From a virus, in UHGV virus genome UHGV-0076257: 33,099 nucleotides of DNA, one strand, 5' to 3'. The translations under genes and the position numbers were made by a program. Positions 5,771 through 33,099 of the stretch are shown here, one piece after another; positions within the stretch are counted from its first letter, which is position 1, and every line of letters starts with the position of its first letter. The notes beneath the pieces are model-generated. The model did not search any database and was not told where the DNA came from. It worked only from the letters and a program-made list of their open reading frames with translations.

Positions 5771-6064
5771 ATGGTTCGTGCAAACAAACGCAACGAGGCT
5801 CTAAGAATCGAGAGTGCGTTGCTTAACAAAATCGCAATGCTTGGAACTGAGAAGACAGCGGAAGCTGTGGGAGTTGATAAGTCGCAGATCAGCAGGTGGA
5901 AGAGGGACTGGATTCCAAAGTTCTCAATGCTGCTTGCTGTTCTTGAATGGGGCGTCGTTGACGACGATATGGCTCGATTGGCACGACAAGTTGCTTCGAT
6001 TCTCACCAATAAAAAACGCCCGGCGGCAACCGAGCGTTCTGATCAAATACAAATGGAATTTTAA
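5771..6064 (+). CDS. c1: CII-type transcriptional activator (P22 c1)
   Basis: Track ORF 5684..6064 trimmed to the internal Met (MVRANKRNEALRIESALLNKIAMLGTEK...), which has an AAGGAA ribosome-binding site and does not cover nutR; matches P22 C1 / lambda CII family from memory. Confidence 0.88.
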   Translation: MVRANKRNEALRIESALLNKIAMLGTEKTAEAVGVDKSQISRWKRDWIPKFSMLLAVLEWGVVDDDMARLARQVASILTNKKRPAATERSDQIQMEF

Positions 6065-6086
6065 TAACATCCAACGAGGTAATTAT

Positions 6087-6359
6087 ATGCGAAACAAAGG
6101 CTTTAATCCACCTGATACACACAAAGAAGCTAAGCGTTTGCGCTTCCTTCGTTCCATTGATGAAAGAACTCAAATCTCTTTTGTGAAAGTTGCCAGAACT
6201 GAGCTTCTGAAGGCTGAGGCGAGGGCGTTGCTCCCGTCTCTACCAAAAGAGGAGGGATATACGTTCATTCCAAACGCATTTCTGGAAAAGCTGATCAAAG
6301 AAGACATATCCGTAAGTCAGTTTAACGATGTTCTTAAGGTCTTTCGTCAAGGCAGGTAG
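6087..6359 (+). CDS. Hypothetical protein (90 aa) between c1 and the replication genes
   Basis: ATG at 6087 preceded by GAGG; MRNKGFNPPDTHKEAKRLRFLRSIDERTQ...; no family recognised. Confidence 0.5.
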   Translation: MRNKGFNPPDTHKEAKRLRFLRSIDERTQISFVKVARTELLKAEARALLPSLPKEEGYTFIPNAFLEKLIKEDISVSQFNDVLKVFRQGR

Positions 6360-6361
6360 TG

Positions 6362-7309
6362 ATGAGCAATACAGCAAAAATCTACGATTTCAGCGCCGCA
6401 CACGAGCGCAGGAGCAACAGGATGGAGAACCAGAAAACTGGTTACATTCCGTTGTACCGGAGCATTCTGAAACAGTCATGGGCGAAAGATGTTTATCTTC
6501 GCACCCTGTGGGAAAACCTTCTCCTGAATGCCGCCAGAAAGCCATACAAAGCGAATTTCAAAGGTCATGAATGGCATCTGCAACCCGGTCAACTGGTTGT
6601 GACAGCAGCTGATTTAGGTCTTCAGTTATGCGACAGGCATGGCAAGCCGGCAAGCCGTGATCAGGTTGAGCGGATGCTTCAGGTTTTTGTGAAAGAGGGG
6701 ATGATCTCCATTGATGGAGAGAAGCAAAAAGGTCGTGTGATCACCATCACAAATTACCATGAATACGCTCAAAAAATGGACAATTCCACCGCGCATGAAG
6801 CCGCACAAACAACCGCACATGATGCCGCACATGATGAAGCCAGTAATGGCGCGGCTTTCAGCGTACATGCCGCACATGAAAGCGCACATGAAGCCGCACA
6901 AACAACCGCACATCATGAACAAGAAGGTATTAACAAGAATATAAATAATACCCCCCTACCCCCCAATGGGGGAGGCGATGGGCAGGTTAAACCTGAACGT
7001 CGCAAGGCAGAACGAATCGACTACGAATCCTTCCTGAACGCCTACAACACCGAAGTCGGTGACAGGCTTCCACACGCTGTTGCGGTCAACGAGAAACGCA
7101 AACGCCGCCTGAAGAAAATCATCCCGCAACTGAAAACGCCAAACGTGGACGGTTTCAGAGCGTATGTCAGGGCGTTTGTGCATCAGGCCAAGCCGTTTTA
7201 CTTCGGAGACAACGACACGGGCTGGACGGCAGATTTTGATTACCTGCTGAGGGAAGATTCGTTAACGGGAGTTCGGGAAGGGAAGTTTGCAGACAGGGGG
7301 ATTGCATGA
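6362..7309 (+). CDS. Replication initiation protein (lambda O / P22 gene 18 analogue) carrying the putative origin
   Basis: About 315 aa, directly upstream of the helicase with an overlapping stop/start; internal [10 protein letters not shown] peptide repeats encoded by DNA iterons. Track start at 6359 is GTG; ATG at 6362 preferred. Confidence 0.8.
6790..6917. repeat. Iteron-like direct repeats (candidate origin) inside the initiator gene
   Basis: Exact 27-bp direct repeat CATGAAGCCGCACAAACAACCGCACAT at 6794-6820 and 6887-6913, plus several CCGCACATGA units between; an AT-rich stretch follows at about 6918-6950. Confidence 0.6.
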
Positions 7310-28766: not shown

Positions 28767-29156
28767 CTAACATTTTCTTTTTACTTTTCCAACAAAAGCT
28801 TTGGTTGAATCCATATTTCCATAACCGGAAATGGTTTTTGACATTAAAACTGTTCCAGTAGGATGTATTACCCATGAGTCGATAACGCGTTGAGTTTCGC
28901 CATTCGCGCCGATTCCTATGATGGAGTTTTTAGACAATGCTTTGTAAGCCATGCCGCCCGCATCTGTCCCAGAATATGTGATGCTGGCATCTTCACCGCT
29001 TGTCTTAATGATGAATGTTCCACTAAAACCATCTTCTTCCGGATGGAAATTATTTCGTTCTGAATAGCTTATTCCGCGCATATCTCCAACGACCCAGCAC
29101 TCTGCTGTAGCCCCAAAAGATATGAATAAGAACATAGCAGCAAGAAATTGCTTCAC
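28767..29156 (-). CDS. Secreted protein with N-terminal signal peptide (129 aa), probable moron
   Basis: Track ORF 28767..29372 trimmed to the GTG at 29156, which lies 3 nt after AAGGAGG; MKQFLAAMFLFISFGATA-EC... is a Sec-type signal peptide; Gly/Ser/Thr-rich mature part. Confidence 0.5.
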   Translation of the reverse strand: MKQFLAAMFLFISFGATAECWVVGDMRGISYSERNNFHPEEDGFSGTFIIKTSGEDASITYSGTDAGGMAYKALSKNSIIGIGANGETQRVIDSWVIHPTGTVLMSKTISGYGNMDSTKAFVGKVKRKC

Positions 29157-29186
29157 ACCAACCTCCTTAGTTTTGCGCAGGATACC

Positions 29187-29552
29187 ATGAAAAAAGTTAA
29201 CATTGGAAACGTACCAAAGATGCTCGTTCCGCTCTTTGAGAGCGGTACAATTGTGTTTTGTAGAGACTTTCCAGAATGGCAACGCCTGCATCAAAAACTT
29301 GGTGTGGACGTGCAGGACTCGGATGCCAACGGAGCGTCTCATACAATGAGCAGCGAGAATGGTGTTTTGCATGTGATAGGCGTGTTCAATGGCAAACTAT
29401 CTACTATTGCCCATGAGTGCGCTCACATGGCATTCGATATCTGCTCAAGGGTAGGTGTTGATGTTGAACCAGGAAGAGCCAACGAGACTTACTGCTACTT
29501 AATGAGCAGGCTTGTTGAGTTCTGCGAGCGACATATCAAAAAGCCGGAGTGA
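29187..29552 (+). CDS. Small HExxH-motif protein (putative zincin-like), 121 aa
   Basis: Track ORF 29148..29552 trimmed to the ATG at 29187, which follows AGGA; contains TIAHECAHMAFD (HExxH). No family confidently recognised. Confidence 0.45.
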   Translation: MKKVNIGNVPKMLVPLFESGTIVFCRDFPEWQRLHQKLGVDVQDSDANGASHTMSSENGVLHVIGVFNGKLSTIAHECAHMAFDICSRVGVDVEPGRANETYCYLMSRLVEFCERHIKKPE

Positions 29553-29564
29553 CCGGCTTGATTA

Positions 29565-29744
29565 TTACTTTTTGCTGTCTGGAGTTCGCTTATCCAATAC
29601 CCAGCCATGACCTGGCTTTGTTGTTGGCGGAAGCCTTTCGTTGTCCTTGACGGTGGCAAAATTGTCTTTCTTACCGCCGCGTGGGCCAACTTCTTGGTAT
29701 ATTCCGCCGTTTTTTCCTGTGTTTTCACCTGGTTTTTTCGCCAT
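29565..29744 (-). CDS. Hypothetical small basic protein (59 aa)
   Basis: Track ORF 29565..29759 trimmed to the Met at 29744, which follows GAGGT; MAKKPGENTGKNGGIYQEVGPRGGKKDNF..., Gly/Lys/Pro-rich. Confidence 0.4.
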   Translation of the reverse strand: MAKKPGENTGKNGGIYQEVGPRGGKKDNFATVKDNERLPPTTKPGHGWVLDKRTPDSKK

Positions 29745-29833: not shown

Positions 29834-29856
29834 AACCCACCGTCAGGTGGGTTTTT
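29834..29856. terminator. Bidirectional terminator-like hairpin at the 3' end of the mnt-like gene
   Basis: AACCCACC-GTCA-GGTGGGTT flanked by an A-run on one side and TTTTTTG on the other; overlaps the last codons of the minus-strand RHH gene. Confidence 0.5.
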
Positions 29857-30217
29857 TGTTGTCATCACCAAGATATTTCTGCTTATATTCCTCTGAAAGA
29901 GGAATTGATCTTTCAACCATGCTAATAAGTTTATCTACTTGTTTTTTCTGTTTTTCTATGATTTCTAAAAGTTGAGGTATAAGTTTTTCATGCTCGATTT
30001 TATCATATTTTCTGTTTATCGCATCTAGTTGTTCTTTAAACTGCTGAACGATAGGACCATCCTCCGGCCCAAAATCACGACAAACACGAATCGCCAACTC
30101 AAGCAGAGTGACAATCTCAGCATTCATAGAACGATTATTTTGTTTTGATGACGCTTCAATTATTTTTTTTAATTCAACAGGAAGCCTAATCCGAAGTTGA
30201 GGGTCTTCTCTACTCAT
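29843..30217 (-). CDS. Ribbon-helix-helix repressor, Mnt/Arc family, with C-terminal extension (124 aa)
   Basis: N-terminal LRIRLPVELKKIIEASSKQNNRSMNAEIVTLLE fits the RHH beta-strand plus helix pattern (compare P22 Mnt ...NGRSMNSELL...); divergent from the arc/ant operon. Confidence 0.65.
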   Translation of the reverse strand: MSREDPQLRIRLPVELKKIIEASSKQNNRSMNAEIVTLLELAIRVCRDFGPEDGPIVQQFKEQLDAINRKYDKIEHEKLIPQLLEIIEKQKKQVDKLISMVERSIPLSEEYKQKYLGDDNKKPT

Positions 30218-30323: not shown

Positions 30324-30340
30324 CTATTTAAGGAGTGGAG

Positions 30341-30508
30341 ATGGAAAAAGCAAAAGACATGTATCAACGCAAGGTTCGTTTCCCAGAGGATGTAAGGAAG
30401 GCGATTGAAAGAAATGGAGAAAAAGAGTGTCGACAGTTCAACACGGAACTTATTTATCAATTGAGAAAAGTGTACGGACTGATTGGAGAGAAGAATGCTA
30501 GGACATAA
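30341..30508 (+). CDS. arc: Arc-like RHH repressor (55 aa)
   Basis: Hand translation MEKAKDMYQRKVRFPEDVRKAIERNGEKECRQFNTELIYQLRKVYGLIGEKNART; GGAG ribosome-binding site; first gene of the ant operon. Below the ORF-track cutoff. Confidence 0.55.
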   Translation: MEKAKDMYQRKVRFPEDVRKAIERNGEKECRQFNTELIYQLRKVYGLIGEKNART

Positions 30509-30581
30509 AAATAGTGAAGCCCGGCAGTGCGCGAACACAAACCGGGCCTCTATGTCAGTAACCGTATGCAAGGAAACTAAC

Positions 30582-31208
30582 ATGAATATTGTAGCAAAAT
30601 CAGATTACAACTTCCACGGAGTTGAGTTGGTGCCCACCCGTGATATGCATGGTGTTTGGTTTACATCATCTAATATTGCATCTGCACTTAAATACGCAAA
30701 TAGTCGTGCAGTAACAATGATTTATAACAAGTATAGCGATGAGTTTAGCGCCGGAATGACTCAGGTACTCGAAGTGAGTACCTCAGGAAATTATCGCAAA
30801 AAAGTGCGAGTTTTCTCACTACGCGGTGCCCACCTAATCGCGATGTTTGCTCGCACTCCGGTAGCCAAAGAGTTCCGCCGCTGGGTGCTGGATATTTTGG
30901 ATCGGCAGGCAGAATGCTCACCGATTGCAAAACAGTTTACTGACGAAGAACTGGTTAATCTCTGCTACTTACAATTGTGGATGGAGAAGAGTCAACAAAT
31001 GTGCAAACACATCTACCCAGGAATGAAGCAAATTTGTTCTGAGCTTTCAGGAAGGATTTACGATATCGCATATGAGACTCGCTATATGTCAGAAGAAACC
31101 AAGAAATCACTTCTTCGTGAAATGAAGAATCTTGATACCAACAATTTTGTCGTAAAGAACGCTCAGCCAATGCTGGCAAAACTGCGCGGCGAGGAATGGA
31201 TTCATTGA
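30582..31208 (+). CDS. ant: Antirepressor, Bro-N/AntA-type N-terminal domain
   Basis: Track ORF 30483..31208 trimmed to the ATG at 30582, which follows AGGAAA; the RVFSLRGAHLIAMFARTPVAKEFRRWVLDIL segment fits the Bro-N pattern. Confidence 0.72.
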   Translation: MNIVAKSDYNFHGVELVPTRDMHGVWFTSSNIASALKYANSRAVTMIYNKYSDEFSAGMTQVLEVSTSGNYRKKVRVFSLRGAHLIAMFARTPVAKEFRRWVLDILDRQAECSPIAKQFTDEELVNLCYLQLWMEKSQQMCKHIYPGMKQICSELSGRIYDIAYETRYMSEETKKSLLREMKNLDTNNFVVKNAQPMLAKLRGEEWIH

Positions 31209-31296
31209 TTGGTGCGCCGGACGGCGCAAAAAGAAAACCGCCAGTGTGCTGCTGGCGGCCTATGTCACACCCTTACTACCACATAAGGAATGCCTA

Positions 31297-32025
31297 ATGA
31301 CTTTTAAGAATGTAGCAAACATCGGATCCGTTGTCACGGATAAAACCATTGACAGCCAGCGCCTGCTTGAGATGGTAAATCAGGCTCGTAGACAGTGCGG
31401 TGAGCCGGAGGTTCGTAATAACAAATTCATCGAGAAAATTGAAGATGAATTGGATGGAGAGCACTACACAAAAAGTGTAGTGCAAAAAGCGAACAAAACT
31501 TCGATGGTTATCATTGAGATGTCAATCAAGCAAGCATTGCGAGTTGCCGCTCGCGAGTCAAAAGCCGTTCGCCGCTCACTGGTAGACCAACTTGAAAGTA
31601 TGCAAGAAGCGCACATTAAAAGCGGTAAATCAGCGAGTGGACTTGTTGAGTATCGTCAAGCGCGAACATTGAAAATGACGGTTGAAGCTGTTACCAATCT
31701 GTTCGATCTGATGCCAAATCTTGCGCCTGAGGCAAAGCAGACAGCGGCAGCAAGTATAATCAACCCGCTTGTTGGTTTTAATGCAATACCTCTTCCGGCA
31801 ATAGAAGAGCATTACTACTCAGCAGGGGAGGTTGCAGAGCAGCTTGGAGTAACGGCCAACAAGATTGGTCGCATTGCTAACGCAAACAACCTCAAAACTG
31901 AGCAGTACGGGAAGTTCTTCCTGGATAAATCGGCGCATTCCAGCAAACAGGTAGAGGCGTTCCGTTACAATTCTGAAGGCGTTAAAGCACTACAACACCT
32001 GCTACATGGCTCAAATGTGGCGTAA
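31297..32025 (+). CDS. Hypothetical protein in the ant operon (possible antirepressor C-terminal-type module), 242 aa
   Basis: Track ORF 31246..32025 trimmed to the ATG at 31297, which follows AAGGAA; co-oriented with ant and followed by a terminator; family not confidently recognised. Confidence 0.5.
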   Translation: MTFKNVANIGSVVTDKTIDSQRLLEMVNQARRQCGEPEVRNNKFIEKIEDELDGEHYTKSVVQKANKTSMVIIEMSIKQALRVAARESKAVRRSLVDQLESMQEAHIKSGKSASGLVEYRQARTLKMTVEAVTNLFDLMPNLAPEAKQTAAASIINPLVGFNAIPLPAIEEHYYSAGEVAEQLGVTANKIGRIANANNLKTEQYGKFFLDKSAHSSKQVEAFRYNSEGVKALQHLLHGSNVA

Positions 32026-32043
32026 CATTTTATAATGAAAACT

Positions 32044-32068
32044 AAACCCGCTTAATCGCGGGTTTTTT
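32044..32068. terminator. Bidirectional intrinsic terminator between the ant operon and the second RHH gene
   Basis: AAACCCGC-TTAAT-CGCGGGTTT hairpin followed by TTTTCT; overlaps the stop of the minus-strand gene. Confidence 0.55.
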
Positions 32069-32309
32069 CTTTCCTTAGAATTTCAGCCGCAACTTCTTTT
32101 ACTCGTTCCGAGATTAATGAGGCCAGCCTCTCTTCTTCATCACGATACCCGCTTACAGGTGATGGTTTGGAGAGTGATTCTTCCATCGTAGCCACAATTT
32201 CGGAATTGATAGACCTGTTATTCATTTTTGCACGCTGCTTAATCTTAGCGTGCAACTCGTGTGTAAGCCTCAAGTGGAACTGCGCCTCATCGTATTTGCT
32301 GTACATCAT
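32052..32309 (-). CDS. mnt: Mnt-type RHH repressor (85 aa)
   Basis: Track ORF 32052..32705 trimmed to the internal Met (MMYSKYDEAQFHLRLTHELHAKIKQRAKMNNRSINSEIVATMEESLSKPSPVSGYRDEEERLA...), which closely resembles P22 Mnt (...NGRSMNSELLQIVQDALSKPSPVTGYRNDAERLA...). Confidence 0.72.
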   Translation of the reverse strand: MMYSKYDEAQFHLRLTHELHAKIKQRAKMNNRSINSEIVATMEESLSKPSPVSGYRDEEERLASLISERVKEVAAEILRKEKTRD

Positions 32310-32441
32310 CAATGCCTCACCAAATGGGTGGAATGGCATCGTAAAACCTACTGTACAAATCAACAATCGTACCGTTTCGGTATGTAATAAATGCCAACCG
32401 TAGCCATGCTGCGGCGATTCCTTGTATCTGGAGCAAATTAA

Positions 32442-33099
32442 ATGACAGACATTACAGCCAATGTTGTAGTAAGTATGCCTTCGCAACTCTTCACTATGGC
32501 TCGTTCTTTTAAAGCCGTAGCCAATGGCAAAATTTATATCGGTAAAATTGACACTGACCCTGTAAATCCTGAAAACCAGATTCAGGTTTATGTAGAGAAC
32601 GAAGACGGTTCTCACATTCCTGTTTCGCAACCAATAATCATTAACGCTGCTGGATATCCGGTATATAACGGACAGATTGCCAAATTCGTAACCGTGCAAG
32701 GCCATTCTATGGCTGTTTATGATGCGTATGGTACACAGCAGTTCTATTTTCCTAATGTGCTGAAGTATGATCCTGATCAGTTACGGCAGCAATTAGAAGA
32801 CCCAGATGGAGCGAATAAATACCCAAAACTTCAGATAGCAAGATGGAGAGACAGTTATGATGTAAGAGGTTGGGGGGCTATTGGTGATGGTGTTCATGAT
32901 GATACATCAGCTCTATCAGAATTACTTTCTGTTGCAACAGGTGGTGAAAAGATAGATGGGCGAGGGCTTACTTTTAAAGTATCAACTCTTCCAGATGTCA
33001 GTCGATTTAAAAATGCTCGTTTTTTATTTGAGAGAATACCGGGCCAGCCTCTTTTTTATGCTTCTGAAGATTTTATCCAGGGAGAGTTATTTAAAATTA
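32442..33099 (+). CDS. Tailspike protein, 5' partial (P22 gp9-type head-binding domain fused to a different receptor-binding domain)
   Basis: [43 protein letters not shown]... matches the conserved P22-like tailspike N-terminal domain up to ...NVLKYDPDQ; what follows ([15 protein letters not shown]) looks like a pectate-lyase-type beta-helix start. Runs off the window end. Confidence 0.85.

Follow-up and report, generated by a model that had tools for sequence, protein, structure and literature searches.

A Hex-like gene beside the last ejection-protein gene

We analysed the 33,099-nt stretch of the virus genome UHGV-0076257, here called the window (the term always refers to the whole stretch), and concentrate on a short minus-strand gene, which we name the Hex-like gene after its relationship to Hex of phage 434. 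The window is a mosaic P22-like (Lederbergvirus-type) genome with genes 20 and 16 and with Arc/Mnt-like and antirepressor-like open reading frames (ORFs). As an earlier note made from the letters alone had pointed out, the Hex-like gene adjoins the last ejection-protein gene: it is convergent with gene 16, from whose end it is separated by 24 bp. The gene, its parts and its immediate surroundings are as follows.

28767..29156, minus strand: Hex-family gene of 129 codons, with a GTG start and a TAG stop at 28769-28767
29162..29168, minus strand: Shine-Dalgarno sequence AAGGAGG, followed by a 5-nt spacer and the GTG at 29156-29154
29103..29156, minus strand: predicted Sec signal peptide (signal peptidase I type), codons 1-18, MKQFLAAMFLFISFGATA, with cleavage predicted between ATA and E
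28770..29102, minus strand: mature domain of 111 aa, 11.9 kDa, pI 7.0, grand average of hydropathy (GRAVY) -0.31, predicted up-and-down beta-barrel
29099-29097, minus strand: Cys20, at one end of the mature domain
28772-28770, minus strand: Cys129, at its other end
29157..29187, minus strand: 31-nt leader TGGTATCCTGCGCAAAACTAAGGAGGTTGGT, common to P22 sieA, the Hex-like gene and orf129 of Salmonella phage vB_SemP_Emek (Emek)
29187..29217, minus strand: counterpart of the annotated 'P sieA' (AF527608 13861-13891), placed by coordinate transfer at 99.1% identity
26832..28742, plus strand: gene 16 (ejection/DNA-transfer protein, 636 aa), the convergent neighbour, 52% identical to P22 gp16

Direct reading of the minus strand around the gene start (...CAAAACTAAGGAGGTTGGTGTGAAGCAATTT...; in a longer excerpt, ...CAAAACTAAGGAGGTTGGTGTGAAGCAATTTCTTGCT...) confirms the strong AAGGAGG and the GTG described in the earlier note, and the product is MKQFLAAMFLFISFGATAECWVVGDMRGISYSERNNFHPEEDGFSGTFIIKTSGEDASITYSGTDAGGMAYKALSKNSIIGIGANGETQRVIDSWVIHPTGTVLMSKTISGYGNMDSTKAFVGKVKRKC (129 aa). 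Among 80 related loci from IMG/VR, the start codon is GTG in 67, and AAGGAGG is intact in 65 of these; the same ribosome site is present in P22 sieA, the Hex-like gene and Emek orf129 in a three-way alignment. In the other 13 loci an ATG occupies the same codon, the upstream sequence is unrelated to that of the GTG loci, and a different yet equally signal-like N-terminal peptide, MKLIIAMAFLVFSFSVSA, is encoded. The earlier note had left room for a downstream ATG as the true start; the start codons of the 80 loci, the ribosome site and the replacement of Met8 by Val8 in allele P0005 decide for GTG. Two other starts were considered and rejected. The start at the internal, unconserved Met8, which RefSeq obtains with PGAP (122 aa), is ruled out by the ribosome site, the N-termini of homologues and the lack of conservation of this residue. 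A 201-aa mechanical ORF from the ATG at 29372 conflicts with the ribosome site and the homologue N-termini, and no homologue backs the extension. RefSeq gives most copies of the Hex-like gene the wrong start codon; for example, E. coli copies are started by PGAP at the internal ATG (L005 6001-6369; L006 5000-5368), giving 122 aa. Since this start removes the n-region of the signal peptide, the export signal has probably been hidden from automated annotation.

Replacement of sieA, start codon for start codon

In the P22 record P22-pbi (AF527608), sieA is annotated between gene 16 and orf59a/mnt. Megablast aligns the window, from position 29154 rightwards, with P22, HK620 and many relatives at 99.1% identity (the figure refers to 29154-29600). 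Position 29154 lies inside the start codon of the Hex-like gene, and the equivalent point in P22-pbi is the sieA start codon; the segment AAGGAGGTTGGTGTG of the P22 sieA start region is identical to that of the Hex-like gene. In the three-way alignment, the leader, running from TGGTATCCTG to CAAAACTAAGGAGGTTGGT, and the GTG are common to P22 sieA, the Hex-like gene and Emek orf129. Beyond these common parts, Emek departs from both the window and P22 on the upstream side of the leader, and P22 departs from the window and Emek downstream of the GTG. Divergence of Emek above the leader and of P22 below the GTG identifies the leader as the joint at which cassettes are swapped. Since the start codon is the point where identity to P22 resumes, the ribosome site, the leader and the region annotated as the sieA promoter have been kept. 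From these alignments, the Hex-like gene is a cassette replacement of sieA, made start codon for start codon. The statement of the earlier note that the gp16-mnt interval of P22 is a sieA slot with variable cargo agrees well with the P22-pbi annotation and with the swap at the leader.

Among deposited phages, megablast found the Hex-like gene only in Salmonella phages ST-35 and Emek. In nearly all of the 80 related loci it is directly convergent with gene 16, and in none of them did a tblastn search with P22 type A SieA as a query detect a P22-type sieA homologue at 4.5 kb or less from the gene. It should be noted that sieA is present in only 22 of 66 P22-like phages (Leavitt et al., PMC10883804). 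The Hex-like gene fills the sieA slot in part of those P22-like phages that have no sieA.

Homology to Hex of phage 434

Neither the Hex-like protein nor Hex has a match in Pfam, NCBIfam or PADLOC. Both match the same protein family of unknown function, PHROG 2651, with E-values of 9e-61 for the Hex-like protein and 1.4e-58 for 434 Hex. A tblastn search against phage genomes (2.3 Gb) linked the two directly, at 27% identity over residues 1-129 (E = 1e-4). The matching gene is located directly downstream of cI in phages 434, lambda imm434, Sf6 (gene 38), HK446, HK633 and Sf101, and in phage 434 records this gene, that is, hex, is labelled 'repressor protection protein'. Alignment of the Hex-like protein with 434 Hex by hhalign gave a probability of 98.4% and an E-value of 9e-15 over 128 columns. 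The two proteins also have a common architecture, namely, a length of about 125-135 aa, a signal peptide, a Cys-aromatic pair at mature positions 2-3 and a Cys near the C-terminus. Hex reads MIRIAALLSILLTTSANS up to the predicted cleavage site and ECWIV...VGTCNQ after it, with ECW following the cleavage and a C-terminal Cys as in the Hex-like protein; on the two sides of the site, ...GATA and ECW...KRKC of the Hex-like protein correspond to ...SANS and ECW...GTCNQ of Hex. By sequence, the Hex-like protein is a full-length remote homologue of 434 Hex/Sf6 gp38, and the homology search proposed as a check in the earlier note has thereby assigned it to a family.

The Hex-like gene belongs to a known, barely characterised family. 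A word-indexed protein search returned close relatives only; the family became visible in an exhaustive HMMER search of 1.84 billion representatives, which yielded 126 family clusters at 50% identity, nearly all of them 120-140 aa long. A pattern search of genome contigs produced 42 matches and no true relatives. GenBank annotators linked Emek orf129 only to Sf6 gene 38. In the searchable open-access literature we found no statement that 434 Hex belongs to the family, that its members are exported or take turns with sieA at a single joint, or that they recur in prophage-expressed slots beside ejection genes; nor did we find a paper there that connects Hex with a signal peptide, Sf6 gp38 or the sieA slot.

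Signal peptide and predicted fold

The N-terminus of the Hex-like protein has the n-, h- and c-region features of a Sec signal peptide: Lys2 in the n-region, an 11-residue hydrophobic core F4-F14 with a mean Kyte-Doolittle value of ~2.5, and Ala at both -3 and -1. Cleavage is predicted between ATA and ECW, and the mature protein would begin at E19. The call is based on the (-3,-1) rule, on family-wide statistics and on the separate helix 2-15 in the AlphaFold2 model. In 109 full-length family members, the n-region is net positive in 103, the 9-residue hydrophobicity maximum of the N-terminus has a median of 2.8, Ala is found at -1 in 79, and A, S, V or T at -3 in 89. A lipobox with Cys at +1 is absent, the residue before Cys20 being Glu in the Hex-like protein. 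Across these members, the residue preceding the mature Cys is mostly E, S, Q, A, D or N, with K also among them, which argues that they are not lipoproteins.

Additional evidence comes from the two allele groups with GTG and ATG starts. Their signal-peptide synonymous sites are saturated (9.7/11.8), whereas the mature parts are ~96% identical and differ at 8 of 72.5 synonymous sites (~11%). This contrast points to a recombination joint at the signal/mature border (window 29103-29156 versus locus L087), besides the one in the leader. N-termini of one kind are thus encoded by two unrelated sequences, and this is good evidence for an N-terminus that is translated and needed. The Sec-type signal peptide proposed in the earlier note is in keeping with these features, with their conservation across the family and with the exchangeability of the signal-coding part.

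The structure prediction that had also been suggested was carried out with AlphaFold2 on an alignment of 69 sequences (predicted local distance difference test score 93.1, predicted template-modelling score 0.80). In the model, helix 2-15 stands apart and is followed by an all-beta, small up-and-down barrel of eight strands, mostly 5-9 residues long. In the same alignment C20, G28 and G123 are invariant and D42, W95 and C129 near-invariant, and in 98 of the 109 full-length members the last Cys lies at most 4 residues from the C-terminus. Both the hydrophilicity of the mature protein and its KRKC end favour a soluble barrel over one in the membrane. In such a barrel the first strand adjoins the last, and a Cys20-Cys129 disulfide closing it is therefore likely. 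A structure search of BFVD gave no match above a template-modelling score of 0.5, and a sequence-profile search of the Protein Data Bank with the Hex-like protein returned noise only.

Genomic contexts of the family

Family members are located directly after cI in phages 434 and Sf6 and, with an 8-bp gap, in Cronobacter lambdoid prophages. In diverged P22-like elements, members with 52%, 48% and 37% identity are co-oriented behind mnt and convergent with gene 16, and a 29%-identity relative is convergent with a 1362-aa gene-16 homologue. A Pantoea prophage member follows tail-fibre genes near the end of the phage-like genes, a position that cor occupies in other phages. In the 80 loci, the gene is co-oriented downstream of mnt in 43 (directly in 27, via a Rap1a/Tai-family gene in 13 and via two other ORFs in 3); an opposite-strand gene intervenes in 31, the arrangement of the window included, and the other 6 have no recognised reference gene upstream. 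Where an opposite-strand gene intervenes, a sieA-type promoter would be needed. The recognisable slots (P_RM, P_mnt and P_sieA) are prophage-expressed, as known for the former two and annotated for P sieA. The Hex-like gene does not lie after cI on the P_RM transcript; this location is a trait of the founding member and not of the family.

Several loci contain further cargo. In 13 of the 80 prophages a gene for a Rap1a/Tai-family immunity protein of the type VI secretion system (T6SS) (PF18602, E = 1e-14), with a signal peptide of its own, lies between mnt and the Hex-like gene, for instance in an IMG/VR P22-like prophage (L079 6171-6506) and in E. coli WCHEC050613 (L103 3905-4240); it constitutes an orphan immunity gene that the prophage carries in its mnt operon. 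In one diverged P22-like element, the gene placed between mnt and the Hex-like gene (L009 2002-2454) codes for a predicted lipoprotein of 150 aa (MKKLLIISIVVLSGC...). Like SieA in the inner membrane, the Rap1a/Tai periplasmic protein and this lipoprotein are envelope-directed neighbouring cargo of the slot. A Serratia marcescens prophage (L096) carries tandem diverged Hex-family paralogues (6001-6387 and 6420-6806) between mnt and gene 16, the second of which is recognised by hhalign at 99.9%; duplication with divergence is a pattern that an arms-race gene would show. A 9.4-kb metagenome contig (L102) has a four-Cys Hex-family member among ~15 small same-strand ORFs with short regular spacers, a run that resembles an integron cassette array. 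The Aeromonas member was considered as the immunity half of a toxin-immunity pair and the idea was rejected, because the 172-aa protein encoded upstream of it resembles a membrane protein and matches nothing toxin-like.

Distribution and selection

Of 5426 complete E. coli genomes, 147 carry the Hex-like gene, in each case on the chromosome, and sequences of Salmonella phages and prophages contain it too. The 129 codons are intact in the window and in all 80 IMG/VR copies. The ratio of nonsynonymous to synonymous substitution rates (dN/dS) in the mature part is 0.21 when pooled and 0.13 between the two allele groups. The gene is under purifying selection. A common E. coli allele (H51-H54, P0012, of which P0012 has 134 aa and 642 member sequences) has its last ~50 nt replaced and has no last strand or C-terminal Cys. 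In WCHEC050613 this 3'-replaced allele is found in a rearranged prophage with a truncated gene 16 and mnt fragments, and it is probably a decayed copy.

Proposed function and alternatives

Salmonella Typhimurium lysogenic for lambda imm434 excludes P22, whereas hex- prophages do not confer this 'heterologous exclusion' (Susskind and Botstein 1980, as cited in Shkilnyj et al., PMC3564112); within the Hex family, exclusion of P22 is known for 434 Hex only (PMC3564112). SieA acts on gp16/gp20-dependent DNA delivery and is thought to disturb the gp7/gp20/gp16 conduit (PMC10883804). We propose, with a probability of about 0.5, that the Hex-like protein is made by the prophage, acts in the periplasm as an exclusion factor and keeps the DNA of P22-like phages from entering. 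An exclusion-type periplasmic effector was among the options of the earlier note and is supported, at the level of sequence analysis, by the sieA slot, the predicted signal peptide and the homology to Hex; its lysozyme-inhibitor option fared worse, as neither MliC/PliC/Ivy nor immunity families of Pfam match the protein at E-values up to 1. According to the proposal, the prophage would make the protein from the inherited sieA promoter and leader; the product would be exported through Sec, cleaved after ATA18 and folded into a small soluble eight-stranded periplasmic barrel, with Cys20-Cys129 as a staple of the first and last strands. In the lysogen it would act from the periplasm to exclude superinfecting P22-like phages, most likely by blocking trans-envelope DNA delivery at the gp7/gp20/gp16 conduit, the needle or the gp4 wall hydrolase; a host envelope factor is an alternative candidate target. 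The Hex-like protein would then be a non-homologous functional substitute for SieA.

Several points weigh against this proposal. A sigma-70 consensus scan of the window did not call P sieA, so that the promoter assignment follows the P22-pbi annotation alone, and activity of P sieA in this phage is an assumption. At 27% identity to Hex, specificity may differ, and the fold search revealed no functional relatives. Some members lie outside recognisable prophages, namely, in an atp/metA interval, in the integron-like array and in an Aeromonas islet, which hints at a more general periplasmic function. Finally, the only biochemical study of Hex gives it a cytoplasmic role, the block of RecA-stimulated cleavage of the 434 and P22 repressors (PMC3564112).

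If that role applied here, the Hex-like protein would bind a C2-type repressor in the cytoplasm, slow its RecA-stimulated autocleavage and stabilise the lysogen. The repressor of the window, which we take to be P22 C2-like, speaks for this alternative and against our proposal. So does the published work: deletion of hex raises recA-dependent spontaneous induction ~30-fold, in recA+ hosts only, and in vitro the 61-residue fragment 'sHex', which spans E43-N103 in a 158-residue reading of Hex, acts as an inhibitor of the RecA-stimulated cleavage that the 434 and P22 repressors undergo (PMC3564112). This fragment was purified through guanidinium chloride and refolded, and over-expression of full-length Hex stopped growth (PMC3564112). 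The words signal sequence, membrane and periplasm do not occur in that paper. In a translation of the 158-codon frame (phage 434 Hex region, L003 2429-2905), E43 coincides with E19 of the 134-aa ORF, the residue that directly follows the predicted cleavage between ANS and E. The end of sHex corresponds to N79 of this ORF, in the middle of the predicted barrel, and the refolded active fragment comprises the first half of the barrel only. The sHex N-terminus may well be that of a signal-peptidase product, the toxicity of Hex may be that of an over-produced exported protein, and in-vitro activity of a half barrel may not mirror the physiological role. A cytoplasmic role as a RecA antagonist fits the signal peptide poorly: a cleavable signal peptide and a terminal Cys pair, conserved in more than 100 members, argue for export. 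Moreover, many family members adjoin no repressor, and the Hex-like protein is only 27% identical to Hex. We consider repressor protection improbable for it. The published model of Hex overlooks the conserved export signal, which places the Hex mechanism in doubt. More broadly, it is conceivable, as a tentative view somewhat less secure than our proposal for the Hex-like protein itself, that the Hex family consists of widespread, soluble, disulfide-stapled periplasmic exclusion factors, which alternate with SieA at one locus and are placed after cI or mnt elsewhere, and that the published RecA-antagonist mechanism is an artefact or indirect.

A periplasmic location would also suit protective cargo (a moron) unrelated to phage entry, such as an orphan immunity protein or inhibitor directed against a T6SS wall-degrading effector, a lysozyme or a bacteriocin, or else a ligand-binding barrel raising host fitness. 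The Rap1a/Tai T6SS immunity gene that directly precedes the Hex-like gene in 13 of 80 loci, the members outside recognisable prophages and the one in the integron-like array are in line with such a role. However, the sole genetic phenotype known in the family is phage exclusion (PMC3564112), sieA was replaced precisely, and linkage to gene 16 is tight across diverged elements. There is also no match to MliC/PliC/Ivy or to an immunity family of Pfam, and no cognate toxin gene was found beside any member, the Aeromonas neighbour being a membrane protein with no toxin signature; on balance, protective cargo seems unlikely. One phage record names its Hex homologue 'PagP', as would befit a small beta-barrel in the outer membrane, of the Ail/Lom/OmpX/PagP type, through which the cell surface would be altered, be it as a virulence factor or to mask a receptor. 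Such a barrel is very unlikely given a hydrophilic mature protein of only 111 aa, its short strands, a KRKC end in place of the typical aromatic C-terminal residue and a conserved end-to-end Cys pair. No outer-membrane-barrel family of Pfam was matched, and soluble barrels (Cap15, NHBA, avidins and designed barrels) score as well as outer-membrane barrels. Truncated, frameshifted or 3'-replaced alleles (P0012, H51-H54) do exist, yet a decaying or silent remnant in this phage is the least credible explanation of all, considering the intact reading frames of the window copy and of all 80 IMG/VR copies, the dN/dS values of 0.13-0.21 and the conserved ribosome site and start codon.

Relationship to known exclusion systems

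The closest known counterpart of the Hex-like protein is 434 Hex (together with Sf6 gp38 and the homologues in HK446, HK633 and Sf101), with which it shares full-length homology (129 versus 134 aa), a signal peptide followed by ECW, a C-terminal Cys, a predicted barrel and a prophage-expressed position. The differences are that identity is only 27%, that the sieA leader precedes the Hex-like gene, which is placed following gene 16 in the immI region, whereas hex follows cI on the P_RM transcript, and that the exclusion phenotype belongs to Hex, the Hex-like gene being known from sequence. The published mechanism of Hex is, in addition, cytoplasmic and hard to square with the export signals of the Hex-like protein. 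With P22 SieA, the Hex-like protein has in common the slot, leader, ribosome site, GTG and annotated promoter region, and both are prophage cargo beside ejection genes. The gene occupies the SieA position, between genes 16 and 9 of a P22-like prophage, and its expression in the lysogen would follow from the retained P sieA region. There is no sequence similarity between the two proteins, which diverge right after the GTG. SieA resides in the inner membrane as a protein with three transmembrane segments and no signal sequence (PMC10883804), whereas the Hex-like protein has a single N-terminal hydrophobic segment with an AxA site and an all-beta, hydrophilic mature part.

The Rap1a/Tai4 periplasmic T6SS immunity proteins (PF18602) are likewise small, Sec-exported and periplasmic, and in 13 of the 80 prophages one of them is the immediate upstream operon partner; they form a separate Pfam family with no sequence match to the Hex-like protein, and are neighbours, not relatives. 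Superinfecting phages are halted, at adsorption or when their DNA enters, by small envelope proteins of prophage or phage origin such as Cor of phi80, N15 and HK022, Llp of T5, and Imm and Sp of T4. Cor and Llp are outer-membrane lipoproteins that block FhuA, and Imm and Sp are membrane proteins. None of these is homologous to the Hex-like protein, and, unlike Cor and Llp, the latter has Glu before the Cys and no lipobox. A precedent for the proposed periplasmic site of action is the HXS 'gatekeeping' system, in which a periplasmic effector is reported to interfere with phage DNA entry (Nat Commun 2026, PMC13128918). As described there, HXS is a bacterial multi-gene system with a different architecture and a His-x-Ser repeat effector matured by a radical S-adenosylmethionine (rSAM) enzyme, and it has no homology to the Hex-like protein.

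The passage of P22-like DNA across the periplasm, and the blocking of this step by prophages, are only partly understood, and the link of SieA to the gp16/gp20 conduit dates only from 2024. The Hex-like gene encodes a second, unrelated and apparently soluble protein in the sieA locus, tied by homology to the decades-old and mechanistically unexplained exclusion of P22 by Hex. As the gene is small and common and escape mutants should be easily selected, the target of Hex-type exclusion is directly testable. The gene thereby unites in one testable question the old Hex phenotype and the cargo that many prophages of E. coli and Salmonella carry in the sieA slot.

Neighbouring genes in the immI region

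In the window, the Hex-like gene is separated from the mnt operon by an ORF on the opposite strand.

29187..29552, plus strand: 121-aa ORF with a HECAH motif, matching PHROG 1365 (E = 1e-39), divergent from the Hex-like gene and located between it and the mnt terminator

The HECAH motif of this ORF is HExxH-like, and an AGGA ribosome site is found 4 nt upstream of its start. The ORF has an overlap with the annotated P sieA and extends as far as the mnt terminator, a terminator-like hairpin at 29541-29559 that is the counterpart of 't mnt' in P22-pbi. The corresponding interval, from sieA to orf59a, is un-annotated in P22-pbi, and the HK620 record suggests a possible 'HkcD'.

Further into the region, the minus strand of the window contains two ORFs of the Arc/Mnt ribbon-helix-helix type (32052-32705 and 29843-30217). 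Also present are an ORF resembling Arc (30335-30508) and two that resemble antirepressors (30483-31208 and 31246-32025), and the immI region of the window looks duplicated or expanded relative to that of P22. In Emek-type loci, a SocA/Panacea-domain antitoxin-like gene (PF13274, E = 8e-25; L002 3326-3775) lies on the opposite strand upstream of the Hex-like gene and is further defence-type cargo in the immI region.

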